A model generated the notes under the pieces. The model ran no database searches and was not told the origin of the DNA. It was given only the letters and a program-made list of their open reading frames with translations. From the sequence record PP434423.1: a DNA stretch of 64,000 bases; one strand, written 5' to 3'. Positions 2,552 to 45,922 of the stretch are shown in pieces; position 1 is the stretch's first letter; every line of letters starts with the position of its first letter. Source of the stretch: Escherichia phage 236Ecol005PP. The position numbers and the translations under genes were made by a program.

Positions 2552-2925
2552 CGTGATTCCTTAACAAATTTCATAATTTCATCAAATTCATACGCAGCAA
2601 GTTTAAGCTGATATTCCTTTTTAATCTTTTTACACTGTGCTTTCCAATCACGTACGCGTTTACGATAATGCCTTCCTTGATACCAGTATCCTACCCAATT
2701 TACAGGTATTAATAAAAGCGGAATTATTAATGGAAGAATTAGCGTTGCTCCAAATATTACACCGGATTCAATATCAGTCATAACGTCTATAACCATTCCA
2801 GCAATTAGCAGAATCACAAATGATACAGCTACCACAGGACCCATTAATACATCAGTAGAAATTATCTGGCGCTTTAGTTCATACTTCACAGGTTTACTTG
2901 GAAGGTATAGTGATGGCTTTGACAT
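2533..2925 (-). CDS. hypothetical membrane protein
   Basis: ATG at 2925 with AGGAA RBS (track start 2946 is TTG); multiple hydrophobic helices. Confidence 0.5.
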   Translation of the reverse strand: MSKPSLYLPSKPVKYELKRQIISTDVLMGPVVAVSFVILLIAGMVIDVMTDIESGVIFGATLILPLIIPLLLIPVNWVGYWYQGRHYRKRVRDWKAQCKKIKKEYQLKLAAYEFDEIMKFVKESRCKSQN

Positions 2926-3502
2926 ATTCTCTACATTCCTTAACAAATTTTTCTAATAATAAATCGCTTTCAAAATTAGGATTTTCTACGAATTTATCAA
3001 AAAGATCATCAATAATAGTCAAGATATTCTTTTTACTAAGAATACGCTTATTTTCATATTTTGTTTCAGAGTCAACTATAAGAGTAAAGAAATATTTCTT
3101 TCCCTGAAATTTTACTGTAGTATCAATATAAAATAAATTTGACTTTTGTAAATTACGTCTAAACCCCGCGTCACTTAAACTATAAATGCCAAGATAGTCA
3201 TAATCGTCGTTTAAATAGCATACCGTCCATTCAGGGGAAATGAAATCAGTAAATTCAACATCAAAATCACATGTCAATGAATGAATTGATTCAATACTGT
3301 TAATAAGTATTCCAGGACGTATTAAAGACTTTTTACCTCTATAAAATCTTCCAGAAAGACTTTCGTCAGTTTCATATGAAGACCCCCAATAGTAATTACG
3401 TCCTTCTGCCATACGTTTAAGAGCATTTAGTAATTGGTCTGGAACATCAACATGTCTTTGGAACTCTTCAAACATTGAATTGAAATCATTTTGCATTCTC
3501 AT
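2894..3502 (-). CDS. hypothetical protein, 202 aa
   Basis: ATG with GGAG RBS; long ORF in early-gene orientation. Confidence 0.6.
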   Translation of the reverse strand: MRMQNDFNSMFEEFQRHVDVPDQLLNALKRMAEGRNYYWGSSYETDESLSGRFYRGKKSLIRPGILINSIESIHSLTCDFDVEFTDFISPEWTVCYLNDDYDYLGIYSLSDAGFRRNLQKSNLFYIDTTVKFQGKKYFFTLIVDSETKYENKRILSKKNILTIIDDLFDKFVENPNFESDLLLEKFVKECREYVKAITIPSK

Positions 3503-3542: not shown

Positions 3543-4136
3543 TTATTTCAGAGAATTAATGTATTCCTGAACATCGGCAGAAGTGGTTTCAACCCCAGAA
3601 ATATTACCGTTAAAGGTTTCAACTCGAGCAAGGGTATCTTCAATATCAACCTTAGTTAGCGCTGCGATTTCAACTACATCATCGGCAGTACTAATTCCAA
3701 GGGCATTTGCCGCTCGAGTTTCACGGATATATTCCAATTTAACTGCAAGTTCTTGGCGAGCATCATCTAACTCAACTACTTTCTTGGCGATTTCAATTCG
3801 CATTTCAGCATAACCATCAGCCTTAGTAGTCAACTGCTCAGCTGTTCGACGATATAATAAACCGAGTTTAGCATGCATTGTTACATCTTGACCTTCGGAA
3901 AGAAGCTTGCGAATTTCACGCTCTTTTGATTCGGCTTGTCGATTCTTTTCGATAACAAGTTCACGAATACGCTTTTCTTCATTAATAGATTTAACAGAAG
4001 CAGTTTTTAGATCTTTAATTTTATCAAGTAGTTTTGCTGCTGCAGCAGTATACTGTTCTTCGACAGATAGATTTTTAGCCATAGCAGAACCAAGTTTAGT
4101 GCGAATAAACTCAACAATTTTCTTCAGTGTGTTCAT
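3543..4136 (-). CDS. coiled-coil protein with PspA/IM30-like character, 197 aa
   Basis: ATG start; long charged heptad-like region; resemblance to PspA judged by eye only. Confidence 0.6.
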
Positions 4137-4179
4137 AGTATTTCCTTAGGTTAATTGAGATTTAAAATCCATGGGAGTA

Positions 4180-4356
4180 TTATACTCCAAAGAGTTTATA
4201 AACTATTTTAACATCTCCTTTTGCTACTTTATAGCCTTCAGCCCAAGATACAACCGAGTTTTTATCTGAAGATTCAAAGTCAGGCATTGGACTTTCATCA
4301 ATGTTCACACAGTATGTTTCTTCATTTTCGTCAAACCAAATAGTTAAAGTAGTCAT
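4180..4356 (-). CDS. small hypothetical protein, 58 aa
   Basis: ATG at 4356 preceded by GGAGAAATAA; below the ORF-track length cutoff. Confidence 0.4.
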   Translation of the reverse strand: MTTLTIWFDENEETYCVNIDESPMPDFESSDKNSVVSWAEGYKVAKGDVKIVYKLFGV

Positions 4357-4424
4357 TTATTTCTCCGCTTCTGTGGTTGTTTTGATAAATCTATAATAAC
4401 ACCGTCCTTGGTGTTTGTATACAC

Positions 4425-4688
4425 TTATTTCATATTATTGAAATATTCTTCTGCGATTTCGTCGTTATCATGGTAAACTTTAGAAGACAGTTTAACATAA
4501 CCTTCAGCAGTGAACATGTTAATCACAACTTTTACAGTATACCACTGACCGTCTTCATTACCCATTACTGCGTAAGTTTCAAACATCGGATGGTCAGGAC
4601 CGATAACTTTAATATCATTCACTGTACGACCGAAATCTTCTGAAACGCATTTCATAAAGAAGTTGAACAGTTCGCCGTAATTATCCAT
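4425..4688 (-). CDS. hypothetical protein, 87 aa
   Basis: ATG at 4688 with GGAG RBS (track start 4700 is TTG). Confidence 0.6.
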   Translation of the reverse strand: MDNYGELFNFFMKCVSEDFGRTVNDIKVIGPDHPMFETYAVMGNEDGQWYTVKVVINMFTAEGYVKLSSKVYHDNDEIAEEYFNNMK

Positions 4689-4731
4689 TTCATTCTCCAA
4701 GTTGTTTTCTGTATCAGTAGTTGATATTGAT

Positions 4732-4761
4732 ATAGTACCATGGAAGAACAGGGATGTAAAC
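4732..4761 (-). promoter_or_regulatory. T4-type early promoter (-35 GTTTAC, -10 TACTAT)
   Basis: GGTTTACA-N17-TACTAT on minus strand upstream of ORF 4425-4688. Confidence 0.45.
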
Positions 4762-4971: not shown

Positions 4972-5066
4972 TGTACGAAACGCCGGGATTTGAACCCGGT
5001 TATTGAGCAGTTGACGCTACTCAATATTTTTAAAAGGCCATATCTCGACCATATCCGAACGTTCCG
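4972..5066 (-). ncRNA. tRNA-like stable RNA (candidate equivalent of T4 RNA species 1/2)
   Basis: canonical T-arm CCGGG-TTCAAAT-CCCGG and 7-bp acceptor-like stem, but no standard anticodon arm. Confidence 0.3.
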
Positions 5067-5210
5067 TCAAAAACGCTACTCGGCTTACGGCAAAGATATT
5101 TCCTCGAATCGATAATTCGGTGCGCCGTTTCTGCTGTGATGTAAGAGGGCATCAATAAACGCAAAGATTATTAACGCAATTCCTTACTCAGGGAACATCA
5201 GTCCGACGAC

Positions 5211-5765
5211 TTACCGGTAGCGACCCGGTTTCTCATTTGGTATTTCAAATTGTGTAGATTTAGTATCTAATTTTTTAACTATGGAACTTATGTCATGAAA
5301 GAAAAACCATTCGCCATTTATATGGTCCTGATTATAAATGCTGTGCATATATTTTTCAAGTTCTACTGCATCCTGGGAATATCTAAATGATACTATTTTA
5401 AAACTTTTAAACGGTGAAAATGTATTTGCTGTTATAACTCTAACATCAGGTTCTATACTTCTTCCTATTTTATAATAATTAGGATTTGTAGTATCTACCA
5501 TTATGTATACGAAAGCCTGTCGATAGCTTTTTTCTATATCAAATTCATCTTTAAATTTCAAAAGATTTAGGGCGGCAGTCCTACAAAATACTTTCCATTT
5601 TGACAAGCGTTTGGCTTCAGTCATAGAAAAGAATTTTTTCTTATCTGTTATTTTAAGAAAAGCAACATTTTCAATTAGTTCTTGTGTTATTTCAAAATTA
5701 CCGCGGTATATTAATCCAGCTTTTATAGCCAAATTAATTTGGTCCCAGTCTACATCACTTCTCAT
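5211..5765 (-). CDS. T5orf172 / GIY-YIG-like domain protein, 184 aa (possible seg-type mobile endonuclease)
   Basis: C-terminal AFVYIMVD...NYYKIGRS...GEWFFF resembles the T5orf172 GIY-YIG-like fold; ATG start. Confidence 0.7.
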   Translation of the reverse strand: MRSDVDWDQINLAIKAGLIYRGNFEITQELIENVAFLKITDKKKFFSMTEAKRLSKWKVFCRTAALNLLKFKDEFDIEKSYRQAFVYIMVDTTNPNYYKIGRSIEPDVRVITANTFSPFKSFKIVSFRYSQDAVELEKYMHSIYNQDHINGEWFFFHDISSIVKKLDTKSTQFEIPNEKPGRYR

Positions 5766-5786
5766 AATATTATTCTCTCAATAATT

Positions 5787-5863
5787 TGGCCAGGGTGAAA
5801 GGATTCTAACCTTTAACCTGCGGTTTAGAGGACCGCTACTCTATACAATTGAGTTACACCCCG
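5787..5863 (-). tRNA. tRNA-Arg (anticodon UCU)
   Basis: hand-folded cloverleaf; anticodon loop CCTCTAA; T-loop TTAGAAT; encoded CCA. Confidence 0.55.
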
Positions 5864-5989
5864 TAATTAGTTCACAGCAATACCTACTCCAACAATCAAG
5901 ATGTCTTCACACGAAATTAAGAGAAGAGTGATCAGTTCAACCACTATAATCGCGTCAAGTAGATATTAATGTGACAACTGTCACAAGTT

Positions 5990-6064
5990 TGGCGGACATG
6001 CATGGATTCGAACCATGGACCAATTGATTAACAGTCAACTGCTCTACCACTGAGCTACACATCC
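5990..6064 (-). tRNA. tRNA-Asn (anticodon GUU)
   Basis: hand-folded: GGATGTG acceptor, GCTC/GAGC D-stem, loop CTGTTAA, T-loop TTCGAAT, encoded CCA. Confidence 0.7.
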
Positions 6065-6068
6065 AAAT

Positions 6069-6155
6069 TGGTGGGGAGTGATGGAGTCGAACCACCCGAG
6101 TCGCAATGACAATGGATTTACAGTCCACACCGCTACCTCTACGGGATAACTCCCC
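6069..6155 (-). tRNA. tRNA-Tyr (anticodon GUA), long variable arm
   Basis: anticodon arm GTGGA-CTGTAAA-TCCAT as in bacterial tRNA-Tyr; type II variable arm; encoded CCA. Confidence 0.7.
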
Positions 6156-6168
6156 TAATTCGTAATTT

Positions 6169-6243
6169 GGTGGCCCTGGGTGGAATTGAACCACCATCTG
6201 GCGATTATGAGTCGCTTGCTTGAACCTTCCAGCTACAGGGCCT
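6169..6243 (-). tRNA. tRNA with CAU anticodon (Ile-lysidine type as in T4, or Met)
   Basis: anticodon loop CTCATAA; T-arm GGTGG-TTCAATT-CCACC; encoded CCA. Confidence 0.7.
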
Positions 6244-6244
6244 T

Positions 6245-6319
6245 GGTGCTGATTGACGGAATCGAACCGCCGACCTTCTCATTACAAGTGAGTTGCTCTA
6301 CCTACTGAGCTAAATCAGC
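6245..6319 (-). tRNA. tRNA-Thr (anticodon UGU)
   Basis: GCTGATT acceptor, loop CTTGTAA, T-loop TTCGATT, encoded CCA. Confidence 0.8.
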
Positions 6320-6325
6320 AAAAAC

Positions 6326-6415
6326 TGGCGGAGGCGATAGGATTTGAACCTATGAGTCGCCGGAGCGACTGCCGGTTTTCAAGACCGGTGCATTAAACCA
6401 CTCTGCCACGCCTCC
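6326..6415 (-). tRNA. tRNA-Ser (anticodon UGA), long variable arm
   Basis: anticodon arm CCGGT-CTTGAAA-ACCGG; type II variable arm; encoded CCA. Confidence 0.8.
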
Positions 6416-6417
6416 AG

Positions 6418-6491
6418 TCTCCGCGGCAGGATTTGAACCTGCGACATTCTGCTCCCAAAGCAGACGCTCTACCAAACTGAGCTACACGGAG
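6418..6491 (-). tRNA. tRNA-Pro (anticodon UGG), CCA not encoded
   Basis: anticodon loop TTTGGGA; T-arm GCAGG-TTCAAAT-CCTGC; 3-prime end lacks CCA. Confidence 0.75.
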
Positions 6492-6501
6492 TAAATTAAA
6501 T

Positions 6502-6575
<74 letters not shown>

Positions 6576-6581
6576 AAACTT

Positions 6582-6668
6582 TGGTACGAGAAGTGGGACT
6601 CGAACCCACAAGGAAATCATTCCGCAGCATTTTAAGTGCTGTGCCTTTACCAATTTGACCATTCTCGC
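6582..6668 (-). tRNA. tRNA-Leu (anticodon UAA), long variable arm
   Basis: anticodon arm CAGCA-CTTAAAA-TGCTG; T-arm GTGGG-TTCGAGT-CCCAC; encoded CCA. Confidence 0.8.
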
Positions 6669-6669
6669 G

Positions 6670-6742
6670 CTGGGAATAAAGGACTCGAACCTTTGCATCT
6701 AGCAGTCAAAGTGCTATGCCTTATCAACTTGGCTAATTCCCA
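6670..6742 (-). tRNA. tRNA-Gln (anticodon UUG), CCA not encoded
   Basis: anticodon arm TAGCA-CTTTGAC-TGCTA; T-arm AAAGG-TTCGAGT-CCTTT. Confidence 0.75.
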
Positions 6743-6811
6743 ATTATTAACAAAGGCTCTCAAGCAAGAACCCTTGATGATAGAGGGTATTAATCAGTGC
6801 GATATGAGTTA

Positions 6812-6835
6812 ATAATAACAAATAATTCTTAAAGC
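6812..6835 (-). promoter_or_regulatory. middle-type promoter (MotA box TGCTTTA, -10 TATTAT) upstream of tRNA cluster
   Basis: minus strand TGCTTTA-N12-TATTAT. Confidence 0.45.
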
Positions 6836-6839
6836 ATAT

Positions 6840-7127
6840 TTACCATTTATGATAATACATGTTTACGATGCATTCAAGACCCAAAGGATTCTTGAAAATA
6901 TCATATTCAAGAGGACCTTTTTCTGTTTCAATAAAGAAATCAAAATTTACTGTATTAAATTTACGGTCTTCCTTCACTAATTTAACTTGAGAAGATGAAC
7001 GGTCAATGTAAACCTTTTCAACTTCAAAACATGTTAAAATGCCATAATCGTCAATCAAGGCTTTAGCCGCGTCTTGATCATATTTATATCCATTTTCAAT
7101 GGATGATACTTTCGCATAAAGAATCAT
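6840..7127 (-). CDS. hypothetical protein, 95 aa
   Basis: ATG start; compact ORF between tRNA cluster and ip locus. Confidence 0.6.
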   Translation of the reverse strand: MILYAKVSSIENGYKYDQDAAKALIDDYGILTCFEVEKVYIDRSSSQVKLVKEDRKFNTVNFDFFIETEKGPLEYDIFKNPLGLECIVNMYYHKW

Positions 7128-45304: not shown

Positions 45305-45922
45305 ATGTACCACTTTGTATATGAAACGACAAATCTAATAAATGGTAAAAAGTATATAGGAAAACACTCTACTGATGACTTGAATGATGGCTACCTTGGT
45401 TCCGGTAAAGCAATTCAGCAGGCTATAAAGAAATATGGTGAAAAGAATTTCTCTAGAACAATACTAAAAGAGTTTAAAACTTCCGAAGAAGCGTACATGT
45501 ATGAAGAAGAAATTATAACTCCTGAACTAATAAAAAGCAAAAATTATTATAATATGAAACCTGGTGGAATTGGTGGAATTGTTATGACTGCAGAGGTTAT
45601 AGCAAAGATGAAAGAATCTTCCGCTAAGAGATTTGAAAACTCACCGGGCACGGTATTAGGTACAACTTGTTACACCAATGGAACTAAAAATATTTTTATT
45701 AAACCTGGAGAACTTGTTCCAGAAGGATTTGTAAAAGGGATGGTTCATCTTAATAGAAAGTCCAGAAAAGGATGTAAAGTCAAACCGACTACCACAGGAA
45801 CTTTTTGGGTCAATAATGGAGCAATAAATAAATTAATACAACCAGACGGTATTATTCCCGACGGATTTATTAAAGGTCGTCTCATGAAAAGAGACTCTAA
45901 AGGCAAATTTAGTAAGGCATAA
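45305..45922 (+). CDS. segE: GIY-YIG homing endonuclease
   Basis: N-terminal GIY-YIG motif (HFVYETTNLINGKKYIGK); 205 aa; position between inh and uvsW as in T4. Confidence 0.85.
   Translation: MYHFVYETTNLINGKKYIGKHSTDDLNDGYLGSGKAIQQAIKKYGEKNFSRTILKEFKTSEEAYMYEEEIITPELIKSKNYYNMKPGGIGGIVMTAEVIAKMKESSAKRFENSPGTVLGTTCYTNGTKNIFIKPGELVPEGFVKGMVHLNRKSRKGCKVKPTTTGTFWVNNGAINKLIQPDGIIPDGFIKGRLMKRDSKGKFSKA

Follow-up and report, generated by a model that had tools for sequence, protein, structure and literature searches.

Introduction

The tRNA clusters of T-even bacteriophages that come closest to the locus described here are those of T2L, T6 and T4, in which the genes are laid out as Met-Tyr-Asn-Arg (T2L), Met-Tyr-segB-Arg (T6) and Ile-segB-Arg-rnaD-rnaC (T4). 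The deposited T2L cluster (AJ880101) already annotates tRNAY(GUA) and tRNA-Asn(GUU). The segB gene is absent from T2L, RB1 and RB3 (PMC2330249; Brok-Volchanskaya et al., 2008). The main, preferred cleavage site of SegB is the tRNA-Asn gene of T2L, the 3' ends of other tRNA genes being weaker sites, and in crosses between T4 and T2L the homing of SegB almost completely excludes about 1250 bp of T2L DNA containing the Met, Tyr, Asn and Arg genes (PMC2330249).

Several bacterial defences that destroy tRNAs act on the two species that are carried by T2L. PtuAB of retron-Eco7 depletes the tRNA-Tyr of E. coli (PMC11555353; Azam et al., 2024), and under this retron infection is restored by the tRNA-Tyr of T5-like phages. 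Even the tRNA-Tyr of E. coli rescues infection when it is placed on a strong phage promoter (PMC11555353), so the rescue is one of dosage. Septu EcB88 cuts within the variable arm, at C48/A49 in E. coli tRNA-Tyr and at C48 in T6 tRNA-Tyr, and is said to do so 'indiscriminately' (PMC13096335; Chihara et al., 2026). The phages range from T2, which is resistant to Septu, through the intermediate T6 to the strongly restricted T4, which has no tRNA-Tyr; deletion of the tRNA region of T6 raises the sensitivity to Septu, and plating is restored by over-expression of T6 tRNA-Tyr or by its SegB-driven tandem amplification (PMC13096335). The same paper states that the tRNA-Tyr of T5 resists retron-Eco7 owing to its variable loop.

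For tRNA-Asn, the relevant system is PARIS, the AriB nuclease of which depletes tRNA-Asn(GUU) as a secondary target (PMC12409363; published in 2025). Cleavage of tRNA-Asn by AriB in vitro is weak, the substitution of U39 by A abolishes the cleavage of tRNA-Lys, and the tRNA-Asn of T5 contributes to rescue from AriB (PMC12409363). We found no paper in which a T-even tRNA-Asn was tested against any defence system, and PMC13096335 does not mention tRNA-Asn. Bacterial Schlafen nucleases were considered as a further threat to the two tRNAs and were set aside, as the Schlafen paper mentions neither of them. The Tyr/Asn pair and the defence role of tRNA-Tyr are thus already known from the T2L deposit AJ880101, from hundreds of GenBank records and from papers of 2024–2026. 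Here, we describe how the pair found in Escherichia phage 236Ecol005PP compares with these systems and which of its possible roles is best supported.

Organization of the tRNA array

The window, by which we mean the whole 64-kb stretch of sequence record PP434423.1 that was analysed, belongs to a Tequatrovirus. ARAGORN calls ten tRNA genes in total in the window, all on the minus strand between positions 5787 and 6742, and all ten reach the gathering score of the Rfam family RF00005. In the order of transcription these are tRNA-Gln(UUG) (6669–6742), tRNA-Leu(UAA) (6582–6668), tRNA-Gly(UCC) (6502–6575), tRNA-Pro(UGG) (6417–6491), tRNA-Ser(UGA) (6326–6415), tRNA-Thr(UGU) (6244–6319), a tRNA with a CAU anticodon, here called the CAU-tRNA (6168–6242), tRNA-Tyr(GUA) (6069–6155), tRNA-Asn(GUU) (5990–6064; Rfam score 72.6 bits), a spacer of 126 nt (5864–5989) and tRNA-Arg(UCU) (5787–5863; 59.3 bits). 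The initial annotation had arrived at the same ten tRNAs, with the same identities and order, by folding them by hand, and the interval that it singled out, 5990–6155, consists of exactly the Asn and Tyr genes; both programs agree with it.

Downstream of the array on the same strand lie a 184-residue ORF with a MUG113/T5orf172 (GIY-YIG-like) domain (5211–5765) and, as identified by blastn against the T4 features, homologues of rnaD (T4 stable RNA species 2; 5119–5236; 99.2% identity) and rnaC (T4 stable RNA species 1; 4974–5112; 97.1% identity). The ORF sits between tRNA-Arg and rnaD, matches the Pfam families PF13455 (2.6e-9) and PF10544 (3.4e-6) as well as PHROG 5032, and is a candidate mobile nuclease gene. 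Together with the Arg gene it forms a cassette that is present in 18 records (at least 80% coverage), including VR7 and VR26.

The 1.1-kb tRNA region is 98.1% identical to that of Shigella phage TB004 and 95–97% identical to that of many Tequatrovirus genomes, in the majority of which both tRNA-Tyr and tRNA-Asn are annotated. Compared with the corresponding T4 genes, the matched positions number 72 for Gln (73 nt in T4), 86 for Leu (87 nt), 73 for Gly (74 nt), 62 for Pro (74 nt), 87 for Ser (87 nt) and 73 for Thr (76 nt). The CAU-tRNA has just 47 matched positions in a pairwise alignment to the 74-nt tRNA-Ile of T4. It is identical to tRNAM(CAU) of T2L, which is annotated as Met; despite that label it is probably a tRNA-Ile2 of the lysidine type, since its acceptor stem and its anticodon stem-loop GCGACUCAUAAUCGC are those of E. 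coli ileY. The tRNA-Arg is a third, atypical allele. Position 33 in its anticodon loop, CCUCUAA, is a C, its T-loop reads UUAGAAU and its D-loop has no GG; the gene has no BLAST-level similarity to either the T4/T6 or the T2L/Sf21 Arg allele. Across phages the array is a mosaic, in which two Asn, three Arg, two CAU-tRNA and two Pro alleles are found.

The spacer between Asn and Arg begins with the hairpin GUGACAGUUGUCAC and is conserved, with 98.4% identity to REP2 and 94.9% identity to Sf21; in Sf21 it is followed by tRNA-His. It could not be assigned to a known RNA, promoter or terminator: Rfam gave no match, consensus sites were absent, and the fold z-score was no more than mild at -2.37. 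A scan for the sigma-70 consensus, which covers T4-type promoters poorly, matched no promoter within the array or the spacer and no strong consensus in or beside the cluster, and over 5600–7000 its matches were no more numerous than in shuffled sequences.

Structure of the tRNA-Asn and tRNA-Tyr genes

The tRNA-Asn folds into a canonical cloverleaf with the anticodon loop CUGUUAA, which is identical to that of E. coli asnT, the discriminator G73 and an encoded CCA end. The GUU anticodon and G73 are identity elements for AsnRS, and the gene in the window has both. Across seven homologues, 97.3% of the cells at cloverleaf pairs are paired and two-sided changes occur in 16 of the 21 pairs; such values were reached in 0 of 500 shuffles, and slid controls paired in only 33–52% of cells.

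Two alleles of this gene occur among T-even phages, and the window carries the minor one, in which the anticodon arm reads U36-A-A-U-C-A41. The corresponding stretch is U36AAGCG41 in the T2L-type Asn and U-A-A-G-U-U in T5, and the host tRNA-Asn has C41. The window and T2L-type genes are identical at 63 of 75 positions and differ at the remaining 12. These differences include six fully compensated pairs, half of them in the T-stem and half in the anticodon stem, and leave the identity elements intact, which points to selection for a working tRNA. An apparent switch of the anticodon from Asn to His in JLBYU22, where a tRNA-His is annotated at the Asn position, proved to be a misannotation, as ARAGORN reads GTT.

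The tRNA-Tyr carries its GUA anticodon in the 7-nt loop CUGUAAA, with U33 and A37, and this loop is identical to that of E. coli tyrU. The tRNA belongs to class II: its variable arm, UGUCAUUGCGACUCG, is 15 nt long and consists of a GUC/GAC stem and a 5-nt loop. It has the discriminator A73 and an encoded CCA end. A long variable arm and A73 are identity elements for TyrRS, and the tRNA-Tyr of the window possesses both. The variable arm of the host tRNA-Tyr, CGUCACAGACUUC, has a 3-nt loop, so that the phage and host arms differ in loop sequence (AUUGC versus ACA) and in length (15 versus 13 nt). Over its 87 nt the gene is identical to the tRNA-Tyr of T2L at 86 positions and to that of T6 at 85, and the window, T2L, T6, T5 and a 109-kb plasmid of E. 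coli share one sequence in the variable arm, in the T-loop and in the 5' strand of the T-stem. A match of the gene to the tRNA-Sec model (34.4 bits, against a cut-off of 47 bits) is an artefact of the long variable arm.

Prevalence and mobility of the two genes

Prevalence was counted over a set of 50,697 phage records, of which 537 contain the core Gln-Leu-Gly-Pro block. The Tyr gene, counted at the level of megablast, is present in 637, with at least 95% identity in 508. The carriers of the Tyr gene comprise Tequatrovirus genomes such as RB5, AR1 and wV7, coliphages of about 136 kb, Enterobacter phages (Karamvirus-type) and Salmonella and Escherichia phages of about 110 kb. The T2L-type Asn allele was found in 352 records and the allele of the window in 62, including RB51, RB68 and the Dhakavirus phages JS10 and IME08, which gives about 414 records with an Asn gene. 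T4-type segB is present in 183 records. From these counts and from the annotation of AJ880101, most of the genus carries Tyr and Asn, and the pair was annotated long ago; T4 departs from this pattern and is unrepresentative of the genus at this locus.

Of 5,426 complete E. coli genomes, 269 also have the phage-type tRNA-Tyr on plasmids. These plasmid copies are the only ones in that set; no chromosomal match was found, and an origin of the gene from the host was therefore rejected. In pEC881_2, the only plasmid examined, the block reads Asn-Tyr-Thr-Ser and lies beside DNA ligase and integrase genes, and in a Pectobacterium phage of the Ounavirinae the order Met(CAU)-Tyr-Asn is the same as in the window. 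The plasmid copies and the gene order of the Pectobacterium phage indicate that the Tyr gene, often together with the Asn gene, circulates among unrelated mobile elements.

Proposed role of the two genes

Taking the above together with the published work, we consider it probable that the two genes are functional elongator tRNA-Tyr(GUA) and tRNA-Asn(GUU) genes of a standard, segB-free array, which act through supply and dosage, both for codon demand and for replenishment under defence. As they lie in the same orientation in a compact array with the other eight genes, they are probably transcribed together with them, and through them the infected cell would have a larger supply of tRNA-Tyr and tRNA-Asn that can be charged. 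One purpose of this may be to meet the Tyr and Asn codon demand, and a second purpose, compatible with the first, may be to replenish tRNAs that are destroyed by defence nucleases: PtuAB, of Septu and retron-Eco7, in the case of tRNA-Tyr, and AriB of PARIS as a candidate in the case of tRNA-Asn. The benefit would come from dosage or from action as a decoy rather than from sequence changes that confer resistance to a nuclease. We infer from the tRNA-Tyr of T6 and T5 that the tRNA-Tyr of this phage would rescue infection, and by the same reasoning tRNA-Asn may have a comparable role; expression, charging and the defence phenotype are likewise presumed for both genes. T4 grows well without either gene, and neither is essential.

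If this reading is right, a phage with this array is expected to be less restricted than T4 by Septu and retron-Eco7, as T2 and T6 are. Such an expectation is relevant to the prediction of host range, for example for therapeutic T4-like phages.

Codon demand

Codon use was counted over 57 non-overlapping ORFs of the window, comprising 17,881 codons. Per 1000 codons there are 42.1 for Tyr, 59.8 for Asn and 13.0 for His, and for both Tyr and Asn the U-ending codons (UAU and AAU) outnumber the C-ending ones about three to one. In E. coli K-12 the values are about 28.5 for Tyr, 39.5 for Asn and 22.7 for His. The demand for Tyr and Asn is thus about 1.5 times that of E. coli and is a genuine contributing explanation for the two genes.

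It could further be argued that the genes serve this high codon use of an AT-rich phage and nothing else, with no role in defence, and the classical ascription of the other eight T4-type tRNAs to codon usage would agree with such a view as well as the counts do. In this exclusive form we regard the explanation as rather unlikely. K-12 has three tyr and four asn genes, whereas the eight tRNAs of T4 correspond to rare isoacceptors. Heavier use is made of Lys and Asp, yet neither has a supplementary tRNA in this genus; in many relatives the third accessory tRNA is tRNA-His, though the window uses His codons less often than E. coli does. The sensitivity to Septu of T6 lacking its tRNA region, together with the strong restriction of T4, also argues against a purely translational role (PMC13096335). 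The combined role in supply and in replenishment therefore remains our preferred explanation.

Spare copies or nuclease-resistant variants

The initial annotation had proposed that the two tRNAs, as members of the class with G/Q34-U35 anticodons that is targeted by some anticodon nucleases (of the colicin E5 type or associated with retrons), might be counter-defence replacements rather than supplements for codon usage. For tRNA-Tyr a counter-defence role is borne out by the published work, with the amendment that PtuAB cuts the variable arm and not the anticodon and that the rescue is one of dosage; for tRNA-Asn, a secondary target of AriB, the proposal is plausible at most. The comparison of the anticodon loops with those of the host, which it had recommended as a way to detect changes at nuclease sites, turned out negative, the loops CUGUAAA and CUGUUAA being identical to those of E. 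coli.

The idea that changes at recognition positions let the phage copies survive nucleases that destroy the host tRNAs has several points in its favour. The variable arm of the phage tRNA-Tyr is unlike that of the host, and it is identical to the variable arm of T5 tRNA-Tyr, which is credited with resistance to retron-Eco7 (PMC13096335). The T2L-type tRNA-Asn, in turn, has U39 changed to G, and a change at position 39 abolishes the cleavage of tRNA-Lys by AriB (PMC12409363). Other observations speak against it. The tRNA-Tyr of T6 has the same variable arm as that of the window and is cut by Septu at C48, from which its authors concluded that cleavage is indiscriminate (PMC13096335). The tRNA-Tyr of the window keeps GUC|A at positions 46–49 (linear numbering), as do those of T6 and E. 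coli, and should therefore be cleavable by Septu, which would leave dose or decoy action as its only possible means of protection. The tRNA-Asn of the window presents U36AAUC|A41, the preferred AriB sequence and the best AriB site, as in tRNA-Lys, and so does not qualify as an escape variant. As for colicin E5, its determinants are the anticodon bases themselves, G/Q34-U35, and a copy that is competent in decoding could not escape by a change of sequence without the loss of that function. Nuclease-resistant replacement is accordingly an unlikely explanation for this pair.

The sequence comparison supports instead the view that the Tyr and Asn genes of the window are spare copies. The tRNA-Tyr, identical at 85 of 87 positions to the T6 tRNA-Tyr, belongs with a molecule that has been validated in rescue. 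Of the known means to a high dosage, there is no adjacent segB, and because segB is not beside tRNA-Tyr the route of amplification in cis that T6 takes is unavailable; nor is there a sigma-70 promoter match, a weak negative given that the scan omits T4-type promoters.

The same comparison raises a broader possibility, namely that the two T-even Asn alleles are a balanced polymorphism driven by tRNA-cleaving nucleases and that the accessory Tyr, Asn and His genes reflect pressure from nucleases and not translation efficiency. The T2L-type allele lacks U39, as does the T5 variant, whereas the allele of the window, U36AAUCA41, is an ideal AriB site; and the accessory tRNAs seen in Tequatrovirus arrays beyond the eight of T4 are Tyr, Asn and His only, all with G/Q34-U35, and codon demand does not account for His. 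We regard this possibility as speculative and improbable at present; if true, the Asn allele of the window could act only as a decoy or as an extra dose.

SegB and the direction of change

The two genes had initially been described as additions to the canonical set of T4 tRNAs. The direction is probably the reverse, as most members of the genus have Tyr and Asn and T4 has segB at the site; the absence of the pair from T4 is probably due to the segB homing endonuclease cassette that takes up their place. No remnants of Tyr or Asn beyond generic tRNA similarity were found next to segB in T4 or T6, so that the polarity rests on the prevalence and on the published homing experiment.

The window has the segB-free array of the T2L type: its CAU-tRNA is followed by Tyr, Asn and Arg, and segB does not intervene. 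A tblastn search with SegB of T4 and T6 gave no match in 5700–6800, and its sole match in the window is a GIY-YIG paralogue with 31% identity at 45359–45889. The candidate SegB recognition sequence in the Asn gene, GGTTCGAATCCATGCATGTCCGCCAAA, matches that of T2L, GGTTCGAATCCTATCACGTCCGCCAAA, at 23 of 27 positions. Five nucleotides have been tied to preferential cleavage by SegB (PMC2330249), and all five (G6, A16, G18, A26 and A27, in a numbering that we deduced from the text of that paper) are present in the window. We had considered that the Asn allele of the window might be a SegB-resistant variant; with these five kept and only four of the 27 positions changed, this found no support.

This candidate site gives some substance to an account in which the genes persist through a hotspot of homing and recombination, the Asn gene being an empty target of SegB and the alleles being shuffled without selection for tRNA function. 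The mosaic composition of the cluster, with its two Asn, three Arg, two CAU-tRNA and two Pro alleles, fits such an account, as does the MUG113/T5orf172 ORF that adjoins the Arg gene. The compensated stem changes of tRNA-Asn with its identity elements kept, which indicate purifying selection on a working tRNA, and the near invariance of tRNA-Tyr across hundreds of genomes nevertheless make it very unlikely.

The tRNA-Tyr departs from the canonical form in its D-arm, in which the acceptor stem is followed by a 4-nt connector (against the usual two) and then by a 3-bp CCG/CGG helix. The gene and eight homologues were split into their arms. The acceptor, anticodon and T stems are intact, with compensatory changes among the copies of T-even, T5, Klebsiella and Pectobacterium phages and of E. 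coli phage-plasmids. The atypical D-arm itself is kept in T6, in T5, where its helix has co-varied to CUG/CAG, in Klebsiella and Pectobacterium phages and in E. coli phage-plasmids. The low Rfam score of the gene, 30.2 bits against a cut-off of 29, is thus ascribed to the 15-nt variable arm and the unusual D-arm and not to decay.

That tRNA-Tyr is a decaying pseudogene, as this score, the impossibility of a canonical 4-bp D-stem, the labels tRNA-OTHER, Pseudo-GTA, 'putative tRNA pseudogene' or Val given to homologues in some records and the failure of ARAGORN to call the Karamvirus copy might suggest, is extremely unlikely, because, according to its annotation, the T5 homologue can be converted into an effective amber suppressor, and the T6 tRNA-Tyr, with 2 differences in 87 positions and a reported northern blot, rescues infection (PMC13096335), besides which the D-arm is kept with covariation in several phage families and 508 records hold the gene at 95% identity or above.

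Comparison with known systems

In conclusion, the array of the window is closest to that of T2L (AJ880101; PMC2330249), with which it shares the CAU-tRNA-Tyr-Asn-Arg block without segB, an identical CAU-tRNA, a tRNA-Tyr identical at 86 of 87 positions, the downstream rnaD and rnaC and an ORF between Arg and rnaD. It differs from T2L in that its Asn (63 of 75 positions identical) and Arg genes are other alleles, in that Asn and Arg are separated by the 126-nt spacer rather than by 4 nt, in the presence of the Thr gene, which T2L lacks, and in having the MUG113-domain ORF where T2L has trna.2.

With T6 the array has in common a tRNA-Tyr that is identical at 85 of 87 positions, with an identical variable arm including the C48 cut site and the same position after the CAU-tRNA. 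In T6, segB lies directly downstream of Tyr in place of Asn, and the protective dose is reached by SegB-driven tandem amplification (PMC13096335). From T5 the same atypical design of the D-arm and an exact match of the variable arm, the 5' strand of the T-stem and the T-loop of tRNA-Tyr can be recognized, and the published role of the T5 tRNAs is to replace host tRNAs that are destroyed by retron-Eco7 or PARIS (PMC11555353, PMC12409363). T5, however, has about 24 tRNAs with strong promoters of their own, and the anticodon arm of its tRNA-Asn is altered (U32, G39 and a mismatched stem), whereas that of the window is host-like.

T4, with eight tRNAs as well as rnaC and rnaD, shares with the window nearly identical Gln, Leu, Gly, Ser and Thr genes in the same order, and the rnaD and rnaC of the window are 99% and 97% identical to those of T4. 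The CAU-tRNA, Pro and Arg genes are different alleles, and where T4 carries segB the window carries Tyr and Asn.

Composition of the tRNA cluster

The tRNA cluster of the window is a mosaic of alleles and not, as the initial annotation had it, the set of T4 with two genes added. When the CAU-tRNA (6168–6242, minus strand) was aligned with the 74-nt tRNA-Ile of T4, only 47 positions were matched; the 'tRNA-Met' of T2L is identical to it. On the basis of the acceptor stem and anticodon arm that it has in common with E. coli ileY, the CAU-tRNA is probably a tRNA-Ile2. The tRNA-Pro (6417–6491, minus strand) matches the 74-nt T4 gene at 62 positions. The tRNA-Arg(UCU) (5787–5863, minus strand) is an atypical third allele, which scores 59.3 bits with the Rfam tRNA model and has no BLAST-level similarity to either the T4/T6 or the T2L/Sf21 Arg alleles. 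Its anticodon loop, CCUCUAA, has C at position 33, which is near-universally U elsewhere, and the combination of A56 in its T-loop (UUAGAAU) with a D-loop lacking GG suggests a possible U19:A56 swap.

Between tRNA-Arg and the homologue of rnaD lies an ORF of 184 aa (5211–5765, minus strand) that encodes a MUG113/T5orf172 (GIY-YIG-like) domain. At this site T2L carries another ORF (trna.2), and in T4 no ORF is present. The MUG113 ORF and the atypical Arg gene make up a cassette that only 18 phage records contain, those of VR7 and VR26 among them; possibly the ORF is a mobile nuclease gene and brought its flanking tRNA allele along. The 3' end of the ORF overlaps by 26 nt with the rnaD homologue (T4 stable RNA species 2; 5119–5236, minus strand; 99.2% identical), beyond which lies the homologue of rnaC (T4 stable RNA species 1; 4974–5112, minus strand; 97.1% identical). 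A search of 4974–5236, which holds both homologues, with Rfam gave no family match.

The tRNA-Asn is followed by a 126-nt spacer (5864–5989, minus strand), which starts with the hairpin GUGACAGUUGUCAC, has a fold z-score of −2.37 and is kept at 98% in REP2 and 95% in Sf21, whereas T2L lacks it. Neither an Rfam hit nor a promoter or terminator consensus was found in the spacer. An eleventh tRNA, His(GUG), follows the spacer and precedes tRNA-Arg in Sf21 (2428–2503 of the stretch L003) and JLBYU22 (517–592 of the stretch L012), and other relatives also carry a tRNA-His annotation. Three accessory tRNAs were seen in these arrays, Tyr, Asn and His, and each is a G/Q34–U35 tRNA. Since His codons, at 13.0 per 1000 in the window, are rarer than in E. 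coli, codon demand does not explain the His gene.

SegB-like sequence and annotation errors

With T4 and T6 SegB as tblastn queries, a stretch with approximately 31% identity to them (E of about 1e-20) was found at 45359–45889 (plus strand), at a great distance from the tRNA cluster. This stretch probably encodes a further GIY-YIG homing endonuclease of the Seg type. The GenBank record of T6 (AP018814) labels segB (2757–3422 of the stretch L006) a 'serine recombinase', and the annotation of JLBYU22 lists the tRNA-Asn as a second tRNA-His. Both labels are annotation errors, which could mislead automated surveys of the tRNA locus.

Occurrence in plasmids and other phages

Of 5,426 complete E. 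coli genomes, 269 have plasmids that carry a phage-type tRNA-Tyr, with 94% identity in nearly all cases, and in none of the 5,426 was this gene found on a chromosome. The plasmid context, taken from one plasmid, the ~109-kb pEC881_2, is an Asn-Tyr-Thr-Ser tRNA block (3921–4747 of the stretch L009) that adjoins DNA ligase and integrase genes. The unrelated Pectobacterium myovirus Wc4 (Ounavirinae) has Met(CAU), Tyr and Asn (887–1152 of the stretch L015) in the same order as the window, which suggests that this three-gene block moves between phage families.
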